A stretch of DNA of 62,046 nt, counting the filler, from Dirinaria sp. TL-2023a (Eukaryota), in the NCBI GenBank assembly GCA_051941275.1. It is 11 parts of 11 records of this genome, joined end to end, with 100 filler letters (N's around TTAATTAATTAA, not from the genome) between each part and the next. Parts side by side here need not be neighbours in the genome. Positions count along the whole stretch, not along the records: positions 28,303 to 33,854 come from JAVEBF010001639.1; 10 more parts are not named here. One strand, given 5' to 3'. The translations under genes and the position numbers were made by a program. A model generated the notes under the pieces. It was not told where the DNA came from. It made no database searches and was given only the letters and a program-made list of their open reading frames with translations. Shown here piece by piece: positions 13,878 to 33,854 of this stretch; position 1 is the first letter of the stretch; every line of letters starts with the position of its first letter.

Positions 13878-16448
13878 TCACAGGGTTGGGTAGTACCGGA
13901 TGGGTTGAGATAGGGATGAGGGCGCAAAGGAAAAAGAGATATTTATTTCGATGGAGGTTACGGTTAAGGGTGAGCAAAGCTTGCGTAAGAATGTGAGCTG
14001 ACGGATCGGCGAGTCCGCTACTGCATTAAGTCCATTCTGGCGTATTCGGAAGCAGGCGATCGAGGCGTAGAGACGCTGGGGATGTTGGAAAAGATGGTTG
14101 GATATCAAAGATACCTTATTTTCGGGTGGGATTTTGAAAAAGGTAAGATATTCGAAGATGGGGGAGAAGATGAGAGGATGGCGAAGAGAGTTCGGGGAGG
14201 GGGCGAACGAGCAGTATCTGCCTGACAGCAAAGCGGGCGGGTGGATGACTAGAAGTAAAAAGGACGAAGGGGAATGGAAGTATTGGCGTGGCTGTCGGAT
14301 ACCAGCATCGGGCTAAGGTTGATTCGGCAAGGGCTGGATGTACCGGCAGGGGTTTATGGGCGATCAACAACTTGGATGACCTGTCATTGGTGATCGATAT
14401 TTCTGCAGTCCATCCCCCTGTCCCCCCATCCTGCCCGCTCAACCTACCTTCAGGTAAAGTCCGACTCCAGCACTCTCTCGACTGGCCACTGACGTTCGTT
14501 CTCCTACTCGCCGTCCCACCCGGGTGCCCGAGTCACATATTCTTCCGACTCCCAATAGAAAAAGTCCCACACACAGTACAATCCGCGGTCGACTCCGAAT
14601 AGTACCTCAAGGTAGCACATGACACTGCGTGACTTGCTGTTCCCATAGGAGAAATCCCCAACTAGAGGAGTGACGGCACAGACTACCTCTTGCATCAGGA
14701 AATAGATTATACTGGTCAGATGAAACCATGCGGGATCGCTTCCCCGCCCCCCGAACACGGACCATGTGCAACGCACGCGGTCACCGAGTCGCTTTTCACT
14801 CCGTATTCGCTGCGACTCGACAGTCGACACGTTGCGCCTCCAATTGCTTACTCAGAGGAGGAGGATGATTATTATTCTTATCGGAAGGCTTTCAATAATA
14901 ATAATAATCTCCTCCCAATTTTCAATTTTAATTACTGCTGTCCTTAACGGGCGTCGACTGATCATTGATATTGCCTTCCTCTCTCTTCCCGCAGAAGTAT
15001 GCGCCCGTGGCGTTCCCCCATATCACCGCTTTTCCACCACACTTTTTTTTTGGGCGCATCATGCGTGTGTCCAAAATTCCCTCTCTGCATAAGCTCTGAA
15101 TCTCAGGCGGTTGCAGCCGCAGCACCCAAATCCTTCGTTGCAATCCCCCACGGTCCAGCTGTCAGCCAATTACAAGTCTCATTTCCCCTCAAGGATAAAT
15201 TAACGACGCCGCTGCCTTCCTTTCAAATATGTGATTCCCAGTTGGCTGGATCCGGCACCTACGAGTGCCGGTCAACTCTCCACATCGGACAGCTTCTATT
15301 GATTGATCACCAACACCTCGTATTGTTCCTCTTCCAAACGGTCGTCCTTTGACATCGGTTTGAGTCTCGCAAGGCGACGAGTCATTGTTGTCCCTGCTCC
15401 TATGCACGCCTGGTCGCCTTGCCACAGCTGGCACGATCAGGTACAGTCTCACTTCCCTCATGGTGGGCGAGATTATCGGTCTCAACCTCCTGAGCTGCAC
15501 TGCGCACGAGGCACAAGGCTACTGACTCGTATGTTTGTTTACTCCGCACCACCTCGTCTCATCTGTGTGCCTGTTATCTCTGGAGACCCGAGTAGAGTGC
15601 GCTTACGCTGCGTCGTGTGGTTGCACCAACGCTTTTGGGCATGAAAGTTTGACGAGACAAAGCAGCTCCAATTCGGGGCAAGATTGACCTCGGTGAGGTT
15701 GTAGGTACAGTAATCAGTACCCAAATTGTCCCTCCCCTATACTTTAACAAAAGCGATCGAACCTCTCAAAACATGTTCTTGTGGGAAAGCGGTGAGCCAC
15801 GTGACGTGAGGCCTAGACCCAACTACGGTAGCGACAACCTGGAACGAGCCTCAGCCTCGTTCGTGTGCTGATGCACAACCAGCCTTGTCTCACCGCAATT
15901 GGGTCTTTTCACAACATGTTTGGATTAGGAACTGCAGCCACCGAACGCCCTGAAGGAGTCCGAACCCAATTCGTGTTACTGCAACGTTGGACCCTCGCCT
16001 AACGTCGCTCACCAATAAACTCAGCTGAGGGTAAAAGCCACAACCGTCTCCCTGGGTCACAATAATCGAATACTCCAATGTAAAGTCAACGATCTCATTG
16101 GAAAAGCTACCTTAGCCATATCTTGTCCATTTTCAGTGCCGGCGGGCTATGGGCTTGGCTTTCTGAAGCGGCGGTGACATTGGAATGACAGTTCAGCCAA
16201 ATTGATTTCCGTCTAATGAAAATGGTTCCCAAGGCAGCGACCAGGCGACCAATCATGGACTCTCAGCAATGGATGTTGACCGGATTTCCCAATGACCAGA
16301 TTGGTGCGATGCAATAAGGTAACGCTTGTTGCTAAGGTCAAATCATGGCTATCGGATACTATCTCCTCCACTTCTCAGCCATCTTCGCCGGTGCGAGATT
16401 TCTGTTCAGGTGGGTAACATGCCATTTCGTCAGGGGTTGTTATTATCC

Positions 16449-16660
16449 TTTTTGATCCTACCAAAAGACAGGCTCTCTTCATTTTGAGATGCTCAGAGGC
16501 GTCGTCTGAGATGCAATCCACATGGTAGACCTAAGAACCGATCGAGACACTGACATTTTTGATCCTACCACAAGATAAGGCCTTTTTTTTATGTGTATAT
16601 TTATTTTAATATGCCTAGAATTGCAGTCTGAAATCTAACCCACACGATAGACCTAAGAAG
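16449..16660. repeat. Degenerate tandem duplication of about 105 bp, running into (AAG)n and homopolymer low complexity
   Basis: TTTTTGATCCTACCA...GTCTGA...TAGACCTAAGAA occurs twice, starting near 16449 and 16556. Confidence 0.6.
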
Positions 16661-16990
16661 AAGAAGAAGAAGAAGAAGAGGGAAAAAAAGGAAGAAAGGA
16701 ACCCCCCCCCCAACAAAAAAAAACCAAAAAATCAAAAAAATCTAAACACCGCAAAAGCTCCATCTGCTCTCCGACCTAACCTCAGTTCCGCCCAGCATCA
16801 GCAACCCCCTTGTGCGATATATCAGAACATTACCAACCCCCCAACCCCCCTTAAAAACCAATAACACATCAATAAAGAATCCCCTCTCTCNNNNNNNNNN
16901 NNNNNNNNNNNNNNNNNNNNNNNNNNNNNNNNNNTTAATTAATTAANNNNNNNNNNNNNNNNNNNNNNNNNNNNNNNNNNNNNNNNNNNN

Positions 16991-17155
16991 TCTAGTCACT
17001 TGAATGGAACTATTCGAAGAGGTGTTGAAAGGCGCGGCTGATGCAGAATTCAAGCTATTGACCAAGGATATGGAAGGGCGACGAATGATAGCTGTGTAGC
17101 TAAGCGTATACAAAGAAAACAGCGCAACCAACAAAGACCACGGGAAAGAAGTCAT
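16991..17155 (-). CDS. N-terminus of a secreted protein, truncated by the gap
   Basis: MTSFPWSLLVALFSLYTLSYTA is signal-peptide-like, followed by an S/N-rich linker with N-glycosylation sequons. The frame stays open into the spacer. Confidence 0.5.
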
Positions 17156-18199
17156 GTTTAGAAGATGTGTACATCAGGCATTGGTAACACGAGGTGTGAA
17201 ATGCGATCAATGTCGAGGGTAGGCAAACCTTGCGCATAGGCGAAGCCTCAAAGCCGCCTGCCGCAGATATGCGCCCAAACCGCGCGCGACTTCAGTACGG
17301 TCAGACCGACAATTTACTAGGAGCTTAGGGTTGTGTTGACCAGATGTATAGGTCATCTTTGTCCCCACTCAATTTGGTCACTATTTCCTAAGCTGTAAGT
17401 GCAACCGCACTTCTTGGTTCGCCACTGCAAATGTCAATCAACCCTCCTAGGACCTGCTTTTTGGAAGTACAAGAGTACTCGCTAGAAGATGCCACCCCCG
17501 ATGGCCTTGCATTTTCAAGTTCATGCCGAATGTTAGTACATGATCCTTAAGGATCTCGGCCGAAATGTTGCCTTAGGCAAGTTAAATCCTTGCTCGGACG
17601 TATGATTAGTCAGTGAAGCACATTTGCGCTTCTGGAAGGAATTTTCTCAATCCCTGTTTGCTGAGATCTTGGAACAAATTATACACGTCAAAGTTTTTGG
17701 ATGAAGATGGAGCTTTTCCCATGATTCAGCCACGCTCGTGAGGTAATCTTACTAGGCCTAATAGAGCTAGCGTATAAACGCCCTCTTGACTATGAGCAAT
17801 CTACACGCCTCCAAGCATCTCGCTACCCATCTTATGTTGTAATTTTCATCCTCAAGTAAGGTATATCAAACTTCATAAGAACCTTAACATTGGTAAGATA
17901 GATACACCACGCCACAGCCTCGAATTTTACCAACTTACCAACAGCATCAAATTCCTACCTGACTGTCTATCTTACCTTAAAAATCTGCAAAGCTGTAAAA
18001 AACAGCCTCCTAACTGTAAAATTCCGCGCCACCATCTTCAACAAAACCATGAACGTGTTAAACATCATTGCTAAATAGCACAACGGCTTCGCAGTCGTTA
18101 TTTAGAGCAATCGATTTTCTATCTGGTATCTTACTGTAAATTAGACCTTGCGTAAGTAATCAGTCGCGAAAGGTCATTCATTATAATGTTTGACATGAC

Positions 18200-18613
18200 C
18201 CATTCTCGAGAGACTGATATCAAGACTTTTTGTCCTCTCCTCGCTCGAGCCTCCCGTCGTCCAACTTCTGTTTACTTTCGATGCACGGCGCAGATAATCG
18301 GGTATCAACCCATTTTTAGTGGAGCCGATACCGTTCAGTGAATGCGAGTCGATGAACGCTCAATGTTTCATACGATATATCCGTATTTTCGAGATTCGAG
18401 CAACCGGACAGCAAAGAATACGGTAGGTTTACACTGTTGCATATTCTTCGAATATCCTCTTGGTTGGGAAATCTCTTCAATTGAAAATTGGTAGAGAAGA
18501 AGGGGAAACATCCAGGTTCCATTCCCTTTTGCGTTTGTGATGTTTGGTGTGAAGGATGCTATTTTACACATGAACAAAGAGAGAAGCGAAAGAGTATGGA
18601 AAGAGCGATTCAT
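18200..18613 (-). pseudogene. Possible frameshifted remnant of a small secreted protein gene
   Basis: Signal-like start MNRSFHTLSLLSLFMCKIA in one frame; Cys-containing PGCFPFF...ICNSVNLPYSLLSGCS in an overlapping frame. No continuous ORF. Confidence 0.25.
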
Positions 18614-18810
18614 AAAAATTGATCAGTGAGCTAAAAGGTCAGGCAAGGAATAGAACCACCTGATCTTGCTAGATCATGGAACAGTCGGTCCATATGTCCC
18701 TGCAGGTGCATGTCATAAACATATTAAAAAAAAATCCTGTGATTCGAAAAGAAAGAACGAAAGAAAGCCCCCTCCAAGCTCGCTTACTCCTTGCCAAAAT
18801 ATCGGCAGAA

Positions 18811-20193
18811 CTAAGCTCCAATCTCCTCATAGACTAGCCCGCAGTTGCCGTCAAAGATGGTGATATCCCCTGCCTCATCTTGGGGCCCGGAAACGTAGTT
18901 CAACTGGACCTCCCGTTGGGTCGGGTCGCACGTACTGAATGGTTGAGTGTTGACGCAGACGCCGGTGTTTGAGTAGAAGAAACCACCTCCGCAGTTGTCG
19001 CTGGTAATACATTGGACGCAGCAGTCTGGATAAATTTGGAGAGGGATACGTTAGTGTAGCAGTAGTGGAGATGATGGAACGGTATGATAGATTGATCGAT
19101 CGAGTGATCATGGGGAATTATGGAAATAAAGCGAGGTTGGGGGCATTTCTGGGGGAAGAAGATGGAGGAACAACTAACCGTATGCTGAATCGGCGGTGCC
19201 GTATACTCCATCCCAATTTATGTCGTCGACAGCCAAACCATTATCGTTGATAGCACCGCCGGCGTTGGGAATGTTGTTTACAAGATTCTGAGAGTTGCAG
19301 GCGGCGTAGAATGTGGGACCCCGGGCGGTCGCGGTGGCAGTAATGGTCCCGGTGCTTGTGACCGTTATAGTCAATGGCACGGTCACAGTAGGAGACAGCG
19401 TGGTTGTCGTGACAATGGTGGTAGCAGCTCCACCTTGAACGATGGTTGATGTCACGGTCGAGGTTACTGTAGAGGTCTGCGGCACCACTGATGGCTTACC
19501 AGTGACCGTCGCTGTCTGGGTCGCTGTGATGGTCTTATGGTTTGTGGTGATTTCATCGACAAGGACGCCGCACGTAACACTTGCTTCATAGCTCTTGGTA
19601 GTTGGTGATCCCCCGCCGTTGCCGTTAGGATTCCGTGGGACTGGACGATTCCCGGCAAGAACATCTGCACGGTGTGCAGTTTTTGCAGCTCGCTTTTTAT
19701 TATCCGCGTTGAAGGGGTCGTATGTGTGTTCGGTGCTCGCCGCAATATCTGGAGCTGAGGATGCATAGATGAAGCCATCAGAGGTTGGCACCGTTACAGT
19801 TGATGTAGGAGTAACGGTCACATTGACGGTGCTCGTCGCAAACGCGGTGACCGTAGTGGGAGTCGTGATGGTCACTGGATTGATAACGGTTTGTGTAGAG
19901 GAGAGAGTTTGGACATTTGTCAAGGTCTTAGTCACTGTTTTGTAAGCAGTTATGGTGGCGGTTGTGGTAGTTGGCTTTGGTGTGACTGTAGATGTCGGAA
20001 TCACCTTTTCAACACATTGTACAGTTTGGTGGATAGTCGTGTATTCTGTTGTCGTTCCGACCGATTTGACGGGCGTTGTGGCATACCGGGTTGCGCATAC
20101 CTCAACAGTATAGTCTTTCACATCATTGCCCAAGACAGGAGAGAAAATAGATGTGAGAGCGATCGCCGCTCCGAGGATGGAGAAAGAATGCAT
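18811..20193 (-). CDS. Secreted Thr-rich (mucin-like) cell-surface protein with a Cys-rich C-terminal domain, 2 exons
   Basis: Signal peptide MHSFSILGAAIALTSIFSPVLG, two Thr/Val-rich blocks and a KKR dibasic site. After a GTTAGT...CTAAC...CAG intron, exon 2 reads DCCVQCITSDNCGGGFFYSNTGVC...TCDP...FDGNCGLVYEEIGA*. Confidence 0.85.
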
Positions 20194-23100
20194 CTGGAGT
20201 CGGAATAGAGAAAGTTGAAAGGGCAAGTTCATGTGGAGAGAACAATTGAAGTCATACGCCGCAGTGGATTATTTATGATACAGACTCACAACGGACTGAG
20301 CGAGATCCTAGCTCTCCTCGAGAGAGATTCCTAGCGATATCCATGTTTAGTTCGGAGGCCTACCTGAGAGGATTCAGTATTGTTGGATCGATGTTGGTCT
20401 CTGAGAGCCATAGAATCCAGACTAAGCAGATTTGTTTTGTCCAATTCAGATATGGTGGTTCTGTTAGCTCTCACAATTCGCTGCGATGGAAAGTTACCGT
20501 TGCGTGAACGGCCTGCATTGGTACACTACCTGGACACAAGTGCGCACACTACCTTGGCTTGAACTGTGAGTATTAGGTTTTGAGCGACACTAGTATCTAT
20601 TCCACTAGCAGTGGCTCAGCATAACGGATTGAGGTCGGAACAACACAACCTTGAGGGCAGACCAAAGGTCAGTCCGTCAGGGTATGAACACTGGGCACTC
20701 CATTTCAAGAGACGCCCACGTTGTATATGTTTCAATTAGGGCGGACTGTTTAAGAAAAGCTGCCCCGATTCGAGGCAGGCATCTATGTATGTGGAGAAAC
20801 GGTTTGAGATGCACGGTGGAGATGATTGATGAAGCTGAAGGTAGACCAAGATGGAGGCGACCTTTTCCCATGGAATCATCGACGCTCTCAAATGCACTCT
20901 CTGGAATCAGAGTTTAGAAACCACGGTATAACATAATGATAAATCGCATGGCCTTCAATGCAGGAACAGGAGTCTGGAAGCTGGTACTGGGTGAGGCTGA
21001 CCCACACCGTTGAAAGTTACTTCTTAGCCACAAACGCCGTTTGAAACGAGGCAAGGATTGTGGCCGTGCACACGGTTAGATCCGCGTCAGCAAAACGTCA
21101 TTCTTCATTTCTTGCATCCAGAACGGGCCGGAAATTAAACGACATCCCTGGCAGAAGCGGAGAAAAGACTTTAGCGTAGAGTCAATCGATCCCAGATATG
21201 CCCCTTTTTGGGGATGTCTAGCTTACCTTAGGAGAGCTTCAATTGCTCAAAGTAGCTTGGCCAGGGACAAGCGTGCATAATCAGCCTCGGTTTAACCTCG
21301 AGTCGTATGCCCTTTTCCCATGGCACATCCGCTCTTTGACTTTGCACCGTTTCCTACCTCTCCCTCATGTAAGGCATGTTTGTATAGCATACCAACGAGC
21401 AACTCAGTAGTAAATGTAGCCCCGATCCAAACGCTTAGCCGCTGACCAACAGCCCCCGCAGTCTCTTAAGGTTGACTGGGTTGAGCTAGCTAAAGCTACC
21501 CCGACGATCGCAATGAGTGTCGGGTGTGCAACGATGTGTGGGCGATTAGGAAACGGTATTGATAGAGAAAAAAGAACAAAAAAGTCGAAATCGGAACAAA
21601 AGGACAAGCGACCAAGCGCAAGTGGTGCGAGCGTGCGATACGCCTATGTGATATCTGAAGCTTTTTGGTCACGCGAGCCCGTGTGCTCCATTACTTCTAA
21701 GTGTCAGCTCTGTAAGCCGATTCAGCCAGTTCCTCGTCACTCGACTCTCGAGGACCTCGCCATCGTTAGCTATATTTCGCGGGAAAGTAGCAGCAAACCA
21801 AGTTCTCAATTGATTGGCTGAAAGCCAAATCTTGACACATCGCGTCCATATAGCAAGGGCCGCAAATAACAATACCCGGTTCATGACCCATTAGGGAGTT
21901 CCGAACTTCCGATGGACACGATCTTGGAGAGACGCTATCATTGCGACCGGTGGGAATATTGTTGGGCGGCCCGAAACACCACAGAGGGGAAATCCATGTC
22001 ACTGAATCGACAGTTGTCCATGGCACAACAAGCTCCACATAGCGGGCCGACCGAGTTTTGATTCAATGTCACCTGCGATCTCGCCTCCCCTCGACAACAC
22101 GTCGGGTTTCTGGCCTACAGATTTCTTGAAATGCCGCTACTCAAGTTCAGACCCAGCAATCTCACTTCGTAGTAAGGTTGAAAAGCTTGTGTGTTTAATA
22201 TGGTACCCGTGCTATATTGCTTCAGTGTGAAACGGAAATAGAAGCAGCTGACCAGGTTTCGCAATCCGCGGCTCAAAGCTCCACTCCGGGGACAGCAACC
22301 TCTCTATTAAGTCTCGCCGGGCCTCGGCACCAGCATGAACAAAACACTACGATCGATCCAAACATTTCAAGTTTAGTGTTAAGATTATGAGGGTGCAATC
22401 CAGAATAAGGTGCTAAGTACCCGGTGTGTGGGTGCCAAGCCGCTAGTGAAACGCGCTAAGCCTACTTGGTCAAACCATCCCCAACAACACCAGGTAGGTG
22501 GTTATTGCCCTTCTTAACACTCTGTATTAATGTATGACTAGAAGTCANNNNNNNNNNNNNNNNNNNNNNNNNNNNNNNNNNNNNNNNNNNNTTAATTAAT
22601 TAANNNNNNNNNNNNNNNNNNNNNNNNNNNNNNNNNNNNNNNNNNNNGAGTGAGCCATAGAGGGTGGCTGGCTGGTTTTCTGTTTAGCTACCTAGATGAT
22701 TTATTCTATGGAGTACGAAGCGAAGAGGCAAAATGTAACAACTGAGAGAGAAAGAGCGGTGGGGGCAAGTGTACACTGTGATCGAAGAGAAAAGAGGGTC
22801 TGTTTTTTATTTAATTGGTTGATATGGTTGTTTGGGGAAGACTGCAGGATCAGAGAAAATGGTTGGTACCAAGGTGCACGTTCTATGGGTAGAAGCAGGA
22901 TGCATTTTTCTTGGAACAAAAGCTCCAGCTAAAATACTAACTATTGATGATGACTAATTAAATGACGACACAGGGGGTCGCACCCCGCTCCTTCCACTTC
23001 AATCAGATTTAGAGATCCCTCTTCTGCAGGTTGCTCCCATTGGGTGAGGGAGTGCTCCGCCTTTTCCTGCCCGTTGCAGCGTTGCTCCAGGTAAAGCGAA

Positions 23101-23257
23101 GATCCCGAACCCATTCAGCCTCGCGCCCAAAAAGAAAGATTGCTAGAAAGTCTGACTATCACCCATACTACAAAATGATGAGAATATAAGACATTGTTAA
23201 CTCGATGTCCGAAATCAAGTAGTAACCTGCTTCATCTGAAATGTTTCTGAATAGACC

Positions 23258-24127
23258 ATGTGCACACAAATCGTTGAAGTATACACCACATGCCGATGCC
23301 CTTATTACACACATGCTGTCGATTATTGCCCCCTCTACCGCCGGCGCGGTCACTCAGTCACGGTCAAAATCGTTTCTGTTGGCTATCAATGCCAGAGCCA
23401 TTCATCTTCGAGTGTCTACCAGAGCGAGCACTTGATTCCTCGGCGCGGCCAAGCTTCGGACAGTCCGGCGACGGAACATCTTTCTCCCAGATTCCCTACC
23501 CATTCCACTCCGCAGTCTGGAAATAACAGCATTGAGGTAGTTGATGTGCAGGGTCCTCGCAGGGAGCAATATCATTACAATGCTGAAGATTTCAACGGGC
23601 TGCCGGTTCGTGATAGAGCCAGCGACCCAGAAACCGCGAACGATATTCGGTCAGCAGCTCTGTGCCTCCAAGAGCTACTCTATGTTCTGCAACCGAATTC
23701 TCTTAACCTGGACCGGTTCCCAAGCTTTGAACTGCTGCCTTTACAGTTACTCCCCAGGCAACAGATCAGTGGCCACGCGACGCAGTCTTCAACGTCGACC
23801 GGGGAAGGACATCATGCAATTTTAGCTCAAGAGCGTGAAGCCTCCCCGGCACCTTCCAACGGACCCACGACGCACCAATCCTTCCTGCGTGTCCGCCCAT
23901 GTTATCTGCTGCTCGCACTAGGCGTTCTGACCGTGGTCGGCAGTCTCGCTCCTGCGCTATGGCAAGCCAAATATCGGCATGATATGTCAGGAGGTTTCTC
24001 ATTGGCGCAGTATATCCTGGGGATCGGAGTCTTTGTCGTGGGAGGCGTGACGGCAATACATAGCAGAAGTTGCACGTGTTGGCAGAATCGGCGACCCAAA
24101 CATCTGGGCATCGACACAAATTGCTAG
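23258..24127 (+). CDS. Hypothetical protein: Cys/His-rich N-terminal motif and two C-terminal hydrophobic helices
   Basis: 289-aa ORF starting MCTQIVEVYTTCRCPYYTHAVDYC...GH...VGYQCQSH. Hydrophobic segments YLLLALGVLTVVGSLAPALW and FSLAQYILGIGVFVVGGVTAIH. Confidence 0.7.
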   Translation: MCTQIVEVYTTCRCPYYTHAVDYCPLYRRRGHSVTVKIVSVGYQCQSHSSSSVYQSEHLIPRRGQASDSPATEHLSPRFPTHSTPQSGNNSIEVVDVQGPRREQYHYNAEDFNGLPVRDRASDPETANDIRSAALCLQELLYVLQPNSLNLDRFPSFELLPLQLLPRQQISGHATQSSTSTGEGHHAILAQEREASPAPSNGPTTHQSFLRVRPCYLLLALGVLTVVGSLAPALWQAKYRHDMSGGFSLAQYILGIGVFVVGGVTAIHSRSCTCWQNRRPKHLGIDTNC

Positions 24128-25782
24128 CTTAGGATAGAAGAAGCAGCACACTATCCTCTGACTGATTTGAAGCGAATATATTTAGCAGTATTGGAAATAA
24201 GCATGGCAGTCGAGCAAGTAGAGAAAAAGCCCTCGAATGGAATGTGACAGCACTGTGGTGCCAAGAGAGCCATATGCACATCCGTCTTAGAGGACTACCT
24301 TAAGAACGAGGCTTACAGAGGTTAAAAACAGCACATATCCATCAGATACTTTCGATAGGAGAACGATGAAGGAACGCTCCCCTAACGCGCCGACGGCGAC
24401 GCATAGGATTAGTCGAATCAAGCGGGCCAGACTAATGGATATCAAAATTTAAACGAACAGAGAGCATCATTTCACTGAAATCAATGTTCCAGGCGCACCA
24501 GAAGTAGTGGACAGCGTTTTCCGGCACGACCGAAAGCCTACTCTGCAATAATAAGAAAGGATTCTCAACTTACGCACAAGCATCGCCACATGGCTAGGAA
24601 AGCTGAGGCCAAAGCCACAGCTGCGGCTCTATCTACCAACAGGATGTCGCTCACGCAGGAGGTGGTAGGGCTATCCAGTCAATCGAGAGGTCTGCATTTG
24701 CGCGCGTCTGGAAGCCCACGGGTTGCAACTTGCAACCAGGGGGCCTGCATAGCGATCAGGTCAATGGTGAATCCTTCGATGCTTTAGTGAGCCCGGTACA
24801 TAGCTCCGTATGCGCCGTGCATTGCTGGCAGGTGTTGGCGCTGGGGAAGGATTACGGAGTATTGGATTGTGAAAAAACACTCGAATGTGGCCCAAGCGAC
24901 CATCGGGCACAATTGGAAAAGTCTGCATTATTGTGCACTTGACTTATGCATCCTCTGCATCTTCTGCAGGTCTCGACCGAGTCTCGCGAGTCATTCTGAC
25001 GCCAAGCCCCAGGAAGCAGGGGGCATGCAGGCTTGCTTCATGCTTGCGGAGTTGCGGCCGCGGCGGTTTCTCGACACTTTCAAACTCGTGGTCGCGGCAG
25101 AAAGACAGGGACCCTGGATCTGGATTACTCGTAGTCTCGTAGTGTACCAAGATAAAACTATCCCTCCGGCTTTTTTGCTGAAAAATCTCCCTATTTTCTT
25201 CCCTTTTCATGCCAGAGTCCCCTTTCACCGGCCTGATTCCCCATTGACTTCACGCCGACGAGCTCTGCGGCCTCCTGGAGGCGTAAGTGGCAGGAGAGTA
25301 CGTCCTAGGCAGGCTGCAGCGAGGCAGGACTTGCTGAGCACCCGCTCAAAAGGACAGTAAGGTACGGTGGCCGAGGCGCTGCAACAAGGAGAAGGGTCAG
25401 TCTTGTAGCTCATATCAAGCTGCCCCAATCTGTCACTCGACTCGGAAACACAGTGTCTAATCGTGGATGATAACAGTAGATCTACCCTCAGAGAATACCT
25501 TACAGCTCTATTGAGCTAGCCGACCGCTCGTTATAAGATTCTTGAGGCCAGCCAGTGGCAACTGAAGTCTTGCTGCGCCGATTTTTCCTCTTAATTGCAG
25601 CTATTACAAACGCGTGGTCGAGGTAGATATCGCGACCGAGGTTACGCGCCCTTCTTATCTGCAATAACCCTGGGGGGCTTGGATATCCTGCTATCCCACA
25701 GCACAAGCCAAGTTCATCCGCCCACTTCACACAACGCGGGACAGTAAGATCAACATCTCGGGCTCCACTGTAAGCAGTCAAG

Positions 25783-28302: not shown

Positions 28303-29097
28303 ATTCTTGAGATACTGAAAGACGTGTATGATGAAGTCAATAAAGAAAAGAAAATCAATCATGAGTATTATCATTTTAGAATGAGCATCGAGTTATTCAA
28401 TATTTTTTATTTCAAATTAATTAGAAATAATCGCATTTTTAAATATTTGAAGATGCAATTAATAACAGACTTGAAGCGAAAAATCACATATAAACTGCAG
28501 AATATGTTTGTTACTAAAGATGTTAAATTTACTAATTTATTTGAAATGAAGAATTTCTTGCAGATGATTGATATTAAACAACGCAATCTCATCTATAATA
28601 GAGCAGAATATGATCGACGATCAGCATCGCGTATTACATTCACGTCTAAACTCTTTATCGTATTTAATCGTTTTATCGATTATCGAACTCTCTTATCTAG
28701 AACATTGTCATCAAAATCATATCGCTCAGACGATCAACGTCAGAACGTTAATTCACTCAAACGATCTCATTGTTATGAATGTGAAAAGCTGAGTCATTTG
28801 ATCAAGAACTGTCCCGATCGCGATAAAAACAATCGAATTCACGAGATCTATATGAACTCGAATGACTCTGAGAGTCAATGATCATTAGAGAAAAAGCATG
28901 ATCATAAACATGATCAGACGAAAAACGCATAACTCTAGAGAGTGACGTTTCGAAAAACGATATAGTTATTTCAATTTCTAGCTTTGTTTACAATTTTTAT
29001 GAAAACACATCGCATAAAACAGCATTCATCGTGTCATGCATTTTGACGTCATCTTTTGAGCAAATCGATGACATCTGTCTTGTCGATACAAAGTCAA
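28303..29097 (+). mobile_element. Mutated Ty3/Gypsy gag (CCHC knuckle) and start of the aspartic protease, interrupted by an LTR
   Basis: CYECEKLSHLIKNCP matches CX2CX4HX4C. Downstream CLVDTKS resembles the protease LVDTGA motif and abuts the LTR at 29098. The sequence is AT-rich and CC/GG-depleted. Confidence 0.8.
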
Positions 29098-29344
29098 TGT
29101 CATGGCCTGCACAGCGCTCATAGGCATATGGGTACTACTAGACTAGGACACTAAGTATAAGGAAGAAAAGAAGGAAAAAACCAGAAGAAGCAGAAGTATA
29201 AGTACAGGAGGTGCAAGCAACAAATAGGGGATCGGGTATGCGGGTAACACGCCTAGGAGGGTATAGTGCAAAACCCCTTAATATCAGAGTCCTCAGGGTT
29301 CTTCAGGGTTCACACATAGGTGCTTTCAGGTCAGGTTCATGACA
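29098..29344 (-). repeat. 3' LTR of the mini-element (family 1)
   Basis: TGTCATG...CATGACA inverted termini. 18 substitutions versus the copy at 30166-30412 by manual alignment. Confidence 0.92.
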
Positions 29345-30165
29345 TTACCCCCTCCATCTAATTAGCAACGTCTCTGTTGCTGCCACCTCATATAGATTGT
29401 CTAAACAGATCTTGACGATGATGTCTGCCGCGCAGGGCTTTGAGGGTGTTATGGCGTTGAAGCGGGCCATGGCGCATAGGGTCAAAAGCATAATTATATA
29501 AACATGCATTGACGGTTTGGCGGGTTGTCGAGCGGTGCTTTCTTGAACTAATTGGCAGTTGTTTGCACCCAAATTTCCCAGGGGTCAACCCTTTTGCATG
29601 CCCTTATTTGGCGTTGGATTTGGTCCCACCATAACACAGGATGCCTAAGAAGGCCTTGAAGTGCCTGCCGCGCAGAGCTTTGAGGAGTGTCTGAACAGGC
29701 CTTGACGATGCCGTTGAAGCAGGCTCGCTGTAGGGAACGGAGGAGAAGAAGGAGTAGGATCGAAAAGAAGATAGGATTTCGAAGATGAGGTAGAAGCAAA
29801 GATAGACGGTGAGAGTGAGAAGAAAAAGATCTGCAGTTGCTTTTTTCTACTCGTGCAACGCTTAAAACGAGCGGTTTTTTTCTTCTTCTGACTATTGCTT
29901 TTGTTTACTCGTGCAATGTCAAAACGAGTGATCTTCTGTCTTTGTCGTGTAAGAACTTTCCGCATCGATGATGACACGAACTTGAGTCTGCAGTTGCTTT
30001 GTTCTACTCGTGCAACGTTTAAAACGAGCCTTTTATCTTCGCCGTGTAAGGATTTCCCGCATTCTGTCGAGGATGACACGAACTTGAGAGAAGATGACGA
30101 TGATTTAACTCGTTCGTCGCGAGTGTGAATTTTACATCGCTCTTCACGATAGATACTTAGTGTAA

Positions 30166-30412
30166 TGTCAAGGTCTGCACAGCGCTCATAGGCATATGAG
30201 TACTACTAGACCAGAATACTAAGTATAAGGAAGAAAAGAAGAAAAAAACCAGAAGAAGCAGAAGTATAAGTACAGAAGATGCAAGCAACAAATAGGGGGT
30301 CGGGTATGCGGATAACACGTCTAGAAGGATATAGTGCAAAACCCCTTAATATCAGAGTCCTCAGGGTCCTTCAGAGTCCACACATAGGTGCTTTCAGATC
30401 AGGTTCATGACA
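30166..30412 (-). repeat. 5' LTR of the mini-element (family 1)
   Basis: Same 247-bp sequence as 29098-29344, followed on the minus strand by the PBS-like 13-mer. Confidence 0.92.
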
Positions 30413-30846
30413 ACAATAACGTTGTCGCGTATTGTTTTCTGTGCGCTCGCGATGCTCATGATCGTTATTTTCGCTTCATTGCTTTTTTTCTGCACGTGTT
30501 TCTTTTTTTGTACAGCTTTTTCAAGTCTTTTGATCATTTTCTCAAATCGCGCAATCATCGCATCGTTATCATTTTATGTAATCGAAATAATTGCGATTTC
30601 GCTCTGACGCATCTTTGCGCGAATCATGTCGAACAAATTCTGTAGTTTAGTCATCGACATTATTTCGCTGACATTGATTTTTTTAAACTCATAAAATCTC
30701 ACAATCTTATTTATCTCATTCAATATTTCGCTCGATTCTGATATTTTTCTCTGCGAAAACGTCTCGATAATGTCTCGTTCATTTGTCGACGTCGCGTCGA
30801 TCGCGTTTATCTCATCGCGACGATTAAAATGAATCGCGAATCTCAT
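30413..30846 (-). mobile_element. Mutated retroelement structural-ORF fragment (gag or LINE ORF1-like, unresolved)
   Basis: CC/GG-depleted. The coiled-coil-like reading ...MTKLQNLFDMIRAKMRQSE...IARFEKMIKRLEKAV is broken by a stop and lies opposite to the flanking pol. Confidence 0.4.
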
Positions 30847-31241
30847 TGTCAGTGATAATTCTCAGTAATTTTTCGAATTCAAAGATAGTTTTAATTGATA
30901 ATATGATCGAGTTCTTATATTATTATTTCTCGAGTAAGTCAGTCTTTAATAAATTCAATTTCAAAATAATGTATCAAACGAGAGTCAAAAACGTTAAGAT
31001 CGATGCATTAACTCGTCGTTCTGACGATGCTTCACAGAACGACGATGAACGCATTCAATATCAATATCGCATCTTATTAATCTCGAATAAATTAAAAATT
31101 TACGCAATTGAACTCGATTCACAGACTCTCATTCATGATCGTATTCTTAATGTCAATCGCGATGACGAAGAATGTAACGATATTCGTCGATTAATCGAGC
31201 AAGAAAAATCTCATTATAAGAGAATATCTTTTGTAGAATAT

Positions 31242-31459
31242 TGTTACGAGCATGCATCTGATATACTACCTGAGGCAACATCTTTCAGAGCTCTCAGAGA
31301 TAATGCGCTAACTCGATCGAGATGTTTACCCGAAACTCGCACACACGCATATATACTCGGGACTCTTTATTGTATCTAGTTTTTCTTCTTCTTCTTTCCT
31401 TAGTGATAATATCTTAGTTAACTATATCTGCATTGACTTGCTCTGCATCGATTCTAACA
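31242..31459. mobile_element. Solo LTR (family 3) with 5-bp TSD AATAT
   Basis: TGTTA...TAACA, 218 bp, flanked by AATAT at 31237-31241 and 31460-31464. Confidence 0.9.
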
Positions 31460-31707
31460 AATATTTTATCAACGACATCTTATATTATTAAAATCGTTTA
31501 TAAGTTCTCAGTAATATAATCTTGCTAGTCGATTTACTAAAAGAAACTCACGAGACATCTATGATAGATTATCTCGACATCGCAAAAACAATGACTTTAG
31601 TGCGACGTTATTATTATTGACTCAGAATGAAGCAAATTATTATGCAATTCGTGCGCAATTATTATGAATGTTTGAGATTCAAATCCTCTCTGAACAAGTA
31701 TAACGAC

Positions 31708-31922
31708 TGTTAGAACCCGTGCAGAGCTCAGATCAATGCAGATATGATTAACTAAGATATTATCACTAAGAAAAGAAAGAAGAAGAAAAGCTAGATACAA
31801 TAGAGAGTCTCAGATATATATGCGCTTGTGCGAGTAAGAAACTTTATTGAGTTTGGCGTATAATCCCTGAAAAGTCTGAGCAAGTGCCTGAAGTCAAAAC
31901 CTCTAGGTTCATGCTCGTAACA
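31708..31922. mobile_element. Solo LTR (family 3, opposite orientation) with 5-bp TSD ACGAC
   Basis: TGTTA...TAACA, 215 bp, similar to the reverse complement of 31242-31459. ACGAC at 31703-31707 and 31923-31927. Confidence 0.9.
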
Positions 31923-32995
31923 ACGACTTGTTAATTCTCGCACAAGTATCTCAGCGTCGATGACAGAATATCTCAATTGATTTCGTTATCGAATTGTTTA
32001 AGTCAAAAGAAAAGAACGCAATTTATATCATCATCGATAAACTGACGAAAAAACGATATTACATATCGTGTACAACATTAAATAAAAACACAATTGCAGA
32101 GATTATCGCGCGCATCTTAATCAAATGAGTATTTCGTACACACGAATTGTCTAATTTTATAATCTCAGATCGAGACTCTCAGTTTGTGATTATCGTTTGA
32201 AAACACTTCTGCAAACTTTTAAACATTATCGTCAAATTATCAATTATCGATCATTTAGAATCCGATGATCAAATCGAACGCGTCAATCAGAATGTGAAAA
32301 AACAATTACGTTTATATTGCAATTATATGCAGAATGACTGAAAGAATTTATTATCTATCGCCGAATTCGCTGACAGCAACGTCGTTGTCGCGAAAATCGA
32401 AATGATCTCTTTTTATGTCAACAAAGAATTTTATCCGCGTATAACTTTTATCTCAGATGACACTCAGTACGCGACGACACGTGATCGCATACAGACTGCA
32501 AAGACAGAGAACATCGCGGACATTATGCAAAAGATGATAGATCTTATACGTAATAACGCGAAGAAGTCGCAGCAGACAATGAAGATGCAAGCGAATAAAC
32601 ATCGCAAGAAAGTCAATTATGAAGTTGACGATCTAGTATTTCTTTCGAGCAAAAATATAAGCACTGATTGACTCTCACTTAAGTTAAAAGATAAAATGTT
32701 AAGCTCGTTCTCGATAACAAATCGCGTTAACGTCTCATATGAGTTAGAACTGCTCAAAACAATGAGAATACACAACGTCATACATCTTAATCTACTTTGT
32801 AAAGACCTCGATGATTCTTTATTAGATCAAATACGCGAGTCTTCTAAGAAAATCGTCACGAACGACGACGACGAATGAGAATTAATCGAAGTCGTTAGTT
32901 CTAGATAACATTTCGATCGACTGCAATATTAATGTCGATGAATGAATGAGAGACAACGCGATAAAATCTAATACAACACTGATAAAAGTGAATTT

Positions 32996-33854
32996 TGTCA
33001 TGAATCTAGATCTGAAGCATCTTAGATCAGATCACATGATCAGATCACATGATCAGACTCAGCGTTCTCTCGAATCGATATTGCTTCGAATCTCTATTTG
33101 AGTCTTTCTGTAGATAGATTTTCTTTTCTTTTCTTCTTCATAGTTAGTGTTCTAGTTTACTAGCACTCATATGTCATTGAGCGCTGTGCAGATTCTGACA
33201 TTACACTAACTATCACTCTTATCTTTGCACTCGTCGACGTTGCACGAGTAGATCAAGCAATTGCAATAAAAGACTTTATAATTATAAAAATCAGAATGTC
33301 TAGACAGATATCAGACTCTCGAGCACAGCTCACTCAGACTCAGATCTTCTCGATCGTCAATGATCTCATTGACGATGCGATTTATCTGTCTCAGACGATG
33401 AAAGATCTATTAAAGAAGACGACAAATCGCCGCGTGTCGATACTGTTAAAAGAATCAGAAGATTTCTTTTCGAGAACAAATCAAGCAGACTTCTCGAATT
33501 TCATCAACACTGTCGATCAATTGAAGCATTGAGTTCGCAACGACGACAATGCAGTACTCGATTTTATTAAGAAATATCGATTGAAGCGCGATGCAGCATT
33601 ACGCTGTCTAGAAGATTGAAGCATTATGATGAACATGAGAGATAAGACAATGAATCAGATCAGACGTGTTTAAGATAAACTTCAAATGACTAAACAAGAC
33701 TTTGAGAATGAGAAAATCATGAATTTAAGTCTCAATGATCAGTTGCAAGAAAAGAACGATGTGATACGAGATCGCGATATTGAGATATCGACATTGAAAG
33801 AGCAATTGCTCGTTGTCGAGATTGTTGACTCTGATGAAAACTCGATTCACTCGA
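32996..33854 (+). mobile_element. 5' LTR (32996-33200, family 2, related to family 1), PBS, leader and mutated gag start, inserted in the chromodomain
   Basis: TGTCATG...GAGCGCTGTGCAGATTCTGACA shares both ends with the reverse complement of the family-1 LTR. It is followed by TTACACTAACTAT and an ORF from 33296 broken by stops. Internal tandem GATCAGATCACAT. Confidence 0.85.

Follow-up and report, generated by a model that had tools for sequence, protein, structure and literature searches.

CC-targeted hypermutation of mobile DNA in Dirinaria sp. TL-2023a

Retrotransposon remnants on one 5552-bp contig of Dirinaria sp. TL-2023a are nearly devoid of the dinucleotides CC and GG, and raise the question of which mutational process removed them and how it compares with RIP as described in other fungi.

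Organization of the CC-depleted contig

The window analysed is the whole stretch of 62,046 nucleotides, in which 11 contigs of a fragmented, metagenome-derived assembly (3105 contigs) are joined; the interval 28303-33854 is one whole contig (G000:C1639) between linkers. Its observed/expected CC ratio is 0.39, compared with 0.90–1.09 for the other ten contigs of the window, and its three old tracts (3586 bp) contain 9 CC/GG where 212 ± 12 are expected from 1000 shuffles, in agreement with the near-absence of these dinucleotides from pol and gag remnants described in an earlier note on this DNA. CC is still present in the 247-bp LTRs, in about 480 bp between them, and in the two solo LTRs (Table 1).

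Table 1. Elements of the CC-depleted contig, with positions counted along the window.
Feature	Position	Strand	Evidence or remark
Ty3/Gypsy-type gag remnant, heavily mutated, with a zinc-knuckle-like motif, nearly without CC/GG	28303..29097	+	28714-28836 matches, by tblastn, the frame of a different element, C1331
247-bp LTR, copy 1 (TG...CA), lightly mutated	29098..29344	-	41 matches in the assembly
Non-coding stretch between LTRs, 821 bp	29345..30165	-	Purine tract adjoins copy 1; primer-binding-like site adjoins copy 2
247-bp LTR, copy 2	30166..30412	-	Bears 12 of the 15 CC>TC/GG>GA changes
Multi-copy repeat fragment without CC/GG	30413..30914	.	87–89% identity to C2636 and C2656
Ty3/Gypsy pol remnant (RNase H end, integrase), stop-broken, split by two solo LTRs	30948..33001	+	tblastn 55–59% to open-frame pol on C1265
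Solo LTR, second family, 5-bp target-site duplication	31242..31459	-	Read from the sequence; aligned to 31708..31922
Solo LTR, same second family, opposite orientation, 5-bp target-site duplication	31708..31922	+	
LTR between pol remnant and next gag	32996..33200	+	14/16 CC sites changed in 125 aligned bases
gag remnant, 83.7% identity to open-frame gag on C1265	33201..33854	+	50/55 CC[A/G/T] sites changed

The first gag remnant has CC counts of 0, 0 and 2 in three 250-bp bins, and a CC/GG-free run of 867 bp (30403-31269) takes in the multi-copy repeat fragment. The open-frame pol on C1265 contains RVT_1, RNase H, integrase and Tf2-type SH3 domains. Between the 247-bp LTRs there are 62 CC sites in the left part (29345-29829) and 8 in the CC-poor right part (29830-30165); the primer-binding-like site consists of 11 nt complementary to the LTR at 61 nt from the LTR's end. 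No target-site duplication was found flanking this LTR pair, and the pair is therefore not established as one intact insertion. The CC sparing of the intervening stretch was considered as a linker test and set aside because no unmutated reference exists.

Between the two 247-bp LTRs there are 18 differences, exactly as counted before: 15 are CC>TC or GG>GA, two are CA>TA and one is a transversion. The context bias persists after normalising for site availability, with 15 of 36 CC sites changed against 2 of 82 other C (Fisher p=1.4e-7). Counted by column without polarisation, 33 LTR matches show only a weak bias (CC 33/43, CA 21/40, CT 24/47, CG 3/9).

Direction and target of the mutations

Comparison of C1265:1-1324 with an open-frame copy reveals a dense one-way change of C:G to T:A: 95 of the 96 differences are transitions, all of them C>T or G>A, the other is a transversion, and the reverse T>C change is seen at 0/690 sites. 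By dinucleotide, 85/174 CC sites are changed, with CA at 3/196, CG at 2/100 and CT at 5/160; by trinucleotide, the counts are CCA 39/51, CCT 32/65, CCG 10/24 and CCC 4/34. The base 5' of CC has no effect (A 26/56, C 15/34, G 17/38 and T 27/46, or 46, 44, 45 and 59%), and the mutated C is not defined by a 5' pyrimidine, as UV or APOBEC-type mutagenesis would have it.

The gag remnant at the right end of the contig, aligned to its open-frame relative, has changes at 54/70 CC sites in sum (4/15 for CCC, the remainder as listed in Table 1), compared with CA 4/81, CG 4/72, CT 14/85 and 8/238 in the reverse direction, and the CpA preference of Neurospora-type RIP is absent from both comparisons. A DDE transposon (C140 against C2874) is changed at 25/29 CCD sites, 21/115 CT, 9/89 CA and 1/82 CG, so that CG is not the main target in any of the three, as it would be under CpG methylation-deamination (MIP, DNMT1 or DNMT5 type), despite the presence of a DNMT5-like gene. 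Six hand-picked unsaturated pairs together give CCA 48/80, CCT 68/138, CCG 17/53, CCC 12/70 and 50/1031 for other sites; saturated copies differ chiefly at CT (CTT 87/142, CTA 33/66). Pairs without CC bias also exist, including C47 (CC 4/36, CA 6/51, CT 11/42), the pair L056/L135 and the L130 tandem repeat. A copy with an open frame, next to a mutated copy of 93% identity, is free of CC-type changes; it may result from collapse by the assembler or have been inserted later.

On both strands it is the first C of CC[A/G/T] that is targeted, without any effect of the 5' base and with CCC mostly spared; CT is a weaker second target, joined by CA in heavily hit copies. The distinct, non-CpA context proposed earlier holds after normalisation, after polarisation against open-frame copies and in a second transposon class, but it is narrower than CpC. 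Alignment to an open-frame relative covers 13 Trp positions, with nine TGA, three TAA, one GAG and no TAG, matching the previous reading of Trp codons as mostly TGA. No strand clustering of changes was found (runs z=+2.1), those on the two strands being interspersed.

Distribution in the genome and in related elements

Judged by composition, CC depletion is confined to mobile DNA and gene-rich DNA is spared. The 500-bp windows with a CC observed/expected ratio below 0.4 number 31/214 in 80 systematically chosen short contigs, as against 1/720 when 6 kb was sampled from each of the 60 longest contigs. Classical RIP indices flag only one of 31 CC-poor windows, and the values for the interval (TpA/ApT 0.65, (CpA+TpG)/(ApC+GpT) 1.25) are similar to those of the rest of the window (0.71, 1.25); standard indices do miss this signal, as had been anticipated. 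CC-free and normal DNA occur on the same contigs, and mutation levels are graded across copies.

Contig C10 has a 37-kb tract that is evenly and moderately CC-mutated, carries genes of mobile elements and stops abruptly near 37 kb; a Starship captain was sought on C10 and none was found, and we therefore refer to the tract only as Starship-like. About 3 kb of classical CpA RIP is present at the end of C10 (CA 0.23, TA 1.57), and CpA-type mutation has thus also reached DNA in this assembly. Partner copies are present in the assembly for the LTR, Gypsy and DDE elements; none was found there for 5 kb of the C10 tract taken as a test piece or for the low-CC Copia contig C2088. The term 'repeat-induced', used in the earlier note, fits in that the mutations sit in mobile and not gene-rich DNA, but as a mechanism it is not secured, with the C10 piece lacking a second copy in the assembly and no enzyme tied to the mutations.

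Three rock-metagenome records (L079-L081) contain related Gypsy elements that have lost nearly every CC, and a fourth metagenome record has a Gypsy relative with classical CpA RIP. The runs containing L080 are labelled rock metagenome; four such runs hold a high-copy family in which transitions far exceed transversions, at too few sites to polarise.

Candidate methyltransferase genes

C1379 carries a gene with catalytic motifs I, IV, VI and VIII that we take, from its motifs and domain layout, to be RID; the contig breaks off before the gene's 3' end, which did not turn up elsewhere in the assembly. A second gene, presumably DNMT5-like by its motifs, is also present. No DIM-2-like gene was found by PF00145, TIGR00675 and BAH searches or by three motif patterns, applied without a positive control to this fragmented and incomplete assembly; of the two enzymes that the earlier proposal pointed to, only RID has a candidate. 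A chlorovirus-type CCD methyltransferase gene (M.CviPII type) was likewise not found, the RID-like and DNMT5-like genes being the only matches in the incomplete assembly.

Among 120 homologues, only the C1379 RID and its three closest relatives combine a P at the fifth residue past the catalytic Cys with SG replacing RR behind motif VI, and 100/120 have D and RR at these positions. The P is nevertheless the common state in distant RIDs (81/130) and was rejected as a marker of the CC target; the variable SG site is a weak lead.

Discussion

We consider RID-dependent RIP with a shifted target the probable explanation of the CC hypermutation. By analogy with Neurospora genetics, repeats would be recognised by homology before meiosis, RID would modify the cytosine, and deamination would then fix T. 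Repeated rounds would remove every CC, leaving TC repeats where there had been C-runs and TGA in place of Trp codons, and after CC loss, CT and CA would be hit at a slower rate. RID itself is described in the available part of PMC13297926 as without activity in vitro.

What is shared with RIP in Neurospora crassa and other Pezizomycotina (RID plus DIM-2) is that transposons undergo dense, directional change of C:G to T:A, that genes are spared and that a RID homologue is present; here, however, the first C of CC[A/G/T] is targeted, CA is nearly spared, Trp codons become TGA and not TAG, TpA-based indices are at background, and DIM-2 was not found in the fragmented assembly. RIP context differs among ascomycetes, and species-specific di- or trinucleotide targets in repeats are reported as CpT/CpG signatures in ascomycetes (PMC4352252) and TpCpG in Pucciniomycotina (PMC3318451); the available portions of both list no CpC signature ('CpC' occurs 0 times in that of PMC4352252), and CG is the least-hit context here. 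Our searches of the literature turned up no account of CpC-dominant RIP, although Clutterbuck 2011 or Gladyshev 2017 may list such species. RIP of retrotransposons and Starship contents is described in other lichen fungi, Cladonia rangiformis (PMC12542154), Xanthoria (10.1101/2025.11.25.690456) and Endocarpon pusillum (PMC3897900), where the accessible sections call it by GC content or TpA/CpA indices, without a CpC context; the GC of CC-mutated DNA here drops only to about 0.35. Two chlorovirus methyltransferases, M.CviPII and M.CviQIX, also modify the first C of CCD, and CCC more weakly (10.1101/2022.06.10.495194), but these viral restriction-modification enzymes methylate and do not mutate, and are a precedent for specificity only.

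Heterochromatin-guided methylation at CC[A/G/T] by a fungal methyltransferase, of DIM-2 type or another, with subsequent deamination in vegetative growth without pairing or meiosis, is unlikely, although it would accommodate the even, moderate CC loss across 37 kb of C10 in the absence of a visible partner, the interspersed changes on both strands, and the DIM-2 activity continuing in mitotic cycles noted for Dothideomycetes in the available text of PMC7882544. The mobile-element genes and sharp end of the C10 tract argue against it, as does the CpT preference ascribed to DIM-2 in the part of PMC13297926 at hand; the failure to find a DIM-2-like gene is a weak point, given the fragmented assembly and patterns lacking a positive control.

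A dedicated cytosine deaminase acting on transposon DNA or cDNA is improbable. It is mostly the 5' base that defines DNA deaminases, and this base has no effect on the CC changes; with DNA transposons and both strands hit, an editor of cDNA only is ruled out. There is an ankyrin plus SsdA_C-type deaminase gene at about 34.2–36.0 kb of C10, but there is no further PF24120 match, and this gene is itself interrupted by TGA stops; fungal deaminases proposed to act against selfish elements belong to a different clade (PMC3239186, in the portion available).

Lichens are light-exposed and CC and CT are dipyrimidines, but UV or other passive damage is very improbable: TCA (1/49), TCG (1/23) and TCT (1/28) are spared, as is the 3' C of CC (1/140 CCA/CCG/CCT sites with CC changed to TT or CT), and gene-rich DNA is untouched. 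An artefact of sequencing, assembly or binning, or DNA of another organism, is scarcely credible even for a fragmented metagenome-derived assembly with a possibly collapsed reference copy, against the gradation of levels from copy to copy, contigs that contain both CC-free and normal DNA, codon-level effects, and the same CC loss in independent public records.

Returning to RIP with a shifted target, we tentatively suggest that a lichen-fungus lineage may have switched its RIP enzyme from CpA to CC[A/G/T], a natural swap in more than one species that would be invisible to all TpA-based surveys and would leave host-specific scars, of the sort that the CpA-type and CC-type tracts of a single contig would represent, from which earlier hosts of Starships and transposons could be read. 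The way in which RIP selects and alters its cytosine is a standing question, which a natural variant of opposite preference makes testable. Surveys built on TpA/CpA indices would score such fungi as RIP-negative, and the dinucleotide scar may record the host through which a mobile element has passed.

Organization of contig C1639

The Dirinaria sp. TL-2023a assembly (27.7 Mb, 3105 contigs) carries on contig C1379 a methyltransferase gene with a 100% match to an NCBI protein labelled Dirinaria, a lichen-forming genus of the Caliciaceae, Lecanoromycetes. C1639, one of 11 linker-joined contigs, is composed of nested LTR-retrotransposon pieces in the order gag remnant, LTR pair around 821 bp, pol remnant, further LTR, and gag remnant; the pol remnant is interrupted by two solo LTRs, each with 5-bp target duplications. 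The complementarity of a short stretch to the LTR resembles Tf1-type self-priming of reverse transcription. The pol–LTR–gag order present in both C1639 and C1265 reflects either tandem copies with a common LTR or an assembly join. The genes of the other ten contigs, judged by eye, include DEAH helicase-, CDC42-, ArgJ- and transketolase-like ones.

Positions of features in the window and, where a contig is named, elsewhere in the assembly
Feature	Position	Content
Contig C1639	28303-33854	Entire contig
LTR pair	29098-29344; 30166-30412	247 bp each
Complementary stretch	30153-30163	11 nt directly after LTR end, complementary to LTR 61 nt from its end
Pol end, one LTR, new gag	31922-33854; C1265:1-2925 (L040)	
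Ten other contigs	1-28202; 33955-62046	Ordinary fungal genes
Mutated copy	C1265:1-1324	Beside open-frame copy
CC-depleted tract	C10:1-37000 (L233-L236)	DUF3723, ferric reductase, ankyrin and DUF7514 genes
Broken ankyrin and SsdA_C-type deaminase gene	L236:4178-6004	Within C10 tract
Classical CpA-type RIP	C10:56600-59671 (L238:6600-9671)	Last 3 kb; covers DUF7924 gene, adjoining SRF-type gene
Moderately CC-depleted stretch	C39, about 15000-25000 (L229-L230)	About 10 kb, in gene-bearing contig
Possibly mitochondrial DNA	C26:15001-21000 (L193)	GC 0.27, CC normal

Context and direction of the CC transitions

The earlier note had counted 15 CC/GG differences, two at CA and one transversion between the paired LTRs; the count stands, and the bias persists per available site (CC, 15/36; other sites, 2/82). 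The near-absence of CC and GG that it described is borne out by nine occurrences in three old tracts versus 212 ± 12 in shuffles, as is the reading of Trp positions as TGA rather than TAG (TGA 9, TAA 3, GAG 1, TAG 0; n = 13). Standard indices do under-call the signature, as it had anticipated, with TpA/ApT of 0.65 and (CpA+TpG)/(ApC+GpT) of 1.25 in C1639, which is background level.

Changes were polarised with a related element, of which C1265 holds an open-frame copy. In that copy the assembler may have merged young ones; even so, it serves for direction, and is no proof of a copy that escaped. The mutated copy beside it differs at 96 sites, 95 of them C to T or G to A changes away from the open-frame copy, with reverse changes at none of 690 T sites. 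CC leads here, not CA or CG (CC 85/174, CT 5/160, CA 3/196, CG 2/100), with strong dependence on the base 3' of CC (CCA 39/51, CCT 32/65, CCG 10/24, CCC 4/34) and no effect of the 5' base (44–59% across bases). Against the same reference, the C1639 gag remnant is changed at 16/17 CCA, 19/20 CCT, 15/18 CCG and 4/15 CCC sites, and at 14/85 CT, 4/81 CA and 4/72 CG sites, with 8/238 reverse changes and 13 transversions. A second close copy, on C1075, has CC changed at 67/145 sites, yet CA at 20/190 too, and in the more distant pol of C1639 ordinary divergence blurs the rates (CC 143/220, CT 99/210, CA 77/247, CG 17/145). The order of targets is CC[A/T/G] > CT > CA > CG.

Distribution in the genome

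The CC hypermutation is real and strong, and extends beyond C1639. A DDE transposon pair is changed at 25/29 CC[A/G/T], 21/115 CT, 9/89 CA and 1/82 CG sites, and 13 of its 16 reverse changes lie at CT; six unsaturated pairs, hand-picked from an all-against-all list, give CCA 48/80, CCT 68/138, CCG 17/53 and CCC 12/70, with 50/1031 elsewhere. Among 80 short contigs sampled at steps of about ten, observed/expected CC falls below 0.4 in 31 of 214 windows, from 15 contigs, and CA below 0.6 in none; classical thresholds flag one of the 31. The 60 longest contigs, sampled over 6 kb each, have corresponding counts of 1/720 and 0/720. Counting against a pure CC rule are the saturated copies, which differ mainly at CTT (87/142) and CTA (33/66), an unpolarised count over 33 LTR matches, where the bias is weak, and a few copy pairs with no context bias.

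The C10 tract is evenly depleted (CC 0.75, TC 1.34), CC is normal (0.96) in the middle of the contig, and its end has CA 0.23 and TA 1.57. We take DUF3723 and ferric reductase to be Starship accessory genes, and the tract is Starship-like, with no captain found on C10; captain loci elsewhere have CC of 0.50–0.68 in three of five cases. A search of the assembly with a 5-kb piece of the tract found no second copy. Large mobile-type DNA is also mutated. The CpA-type scars were either brought in from another host or reflect a second pathway.

Possible sources of the CC change

The spectrum and direction of the CC change, its occurrence on both strands and its distribution are established. It behaves as RIP does, except that the CpA preference is missing, and is thus classed as a variant rather than canonical RIP. 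Profiles PF00145 and TIGR00675 match two genes, on C1379 and C712, which we name RID-like and DNMT5-like, respectively, from their motifs. The former retains motifs I, IV, VI and VIII, its 3' end lying beyond the contig. Of the two enzymes that the earlier note proposed to identify, a RID-like gene is thus present, and DIM-2 was not found in searches of this fragmentary assembly, a weak negative. Candidate specificity residues in RID did not stand up on comparison.

RID-dependent RIP is probably the source, since no non-CG candidate apart from RID was found. A distinctly less likely route is methylation guided by chromatin and followed by deamination during vegetative growth. A deaminase is improbable; the one in the C10 tract is its family's sole match in the assembly. 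UV damage and artefact are each very hard to credit. A C5-methyltransferase-type enzyme would read two bases 3' of the target C, and the part of 10.1101/2022.06.10.495194 consulted describes a viral methyltransferase with the same CCD rule.

The main survey of RIP contexts is reportedly that of Clutterbuck in 2011. The parts of the literature consulted describe CpA, CpT and CpG signatures in ten genomes (PMC4352252), a TpCpG signature (PMC3318451), and RIPCAL, with CpC among its categories and CpA the dominant type (PMC2621366). No report of CpC-dominant RIP was found in literature searches, with these and further portions consulted (PMC5555474, PMC12543289, PMC7882544, PMC12542154, 10.1101/2025.11.25.690456, PMC3897900, PMC13535494, PMC13297926, PMC3239186), a scope that leaves out supplements and Clutterbuck 2011; the parts seen of PMC5602860 and PMC11381340 held nothing relevant. 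Novelty is not proven.

Related elements in metagenome records

With the pol protein as query over metagenome contigs, four loci were recovered (L078–L081). L079 and L080 are 99.7% identical, L081 is 84% identical to them, and all three, which carry a rock metagenome label and may represent one species, are 33–35% identical to the query. In these Gypsy nests CC/GG is nearly absent (20 occurrences in 10783 bp, 5 in 13629 bp) and Trp positions read TGA in 14/17 and 29/43 cases, composition and codons that suggest the same direction of change; CG is lost too (observed/expected about 0.2–0.8), while in the Dirinaria genome it is enriched. L078 (52% identical to the query) has classical RIP, with TpA/ApT of 1.55 and, among 18 Trp positions, eight TAG and no TGA. 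The scars of related elements differ from record to record, an indication that they stem from the host.
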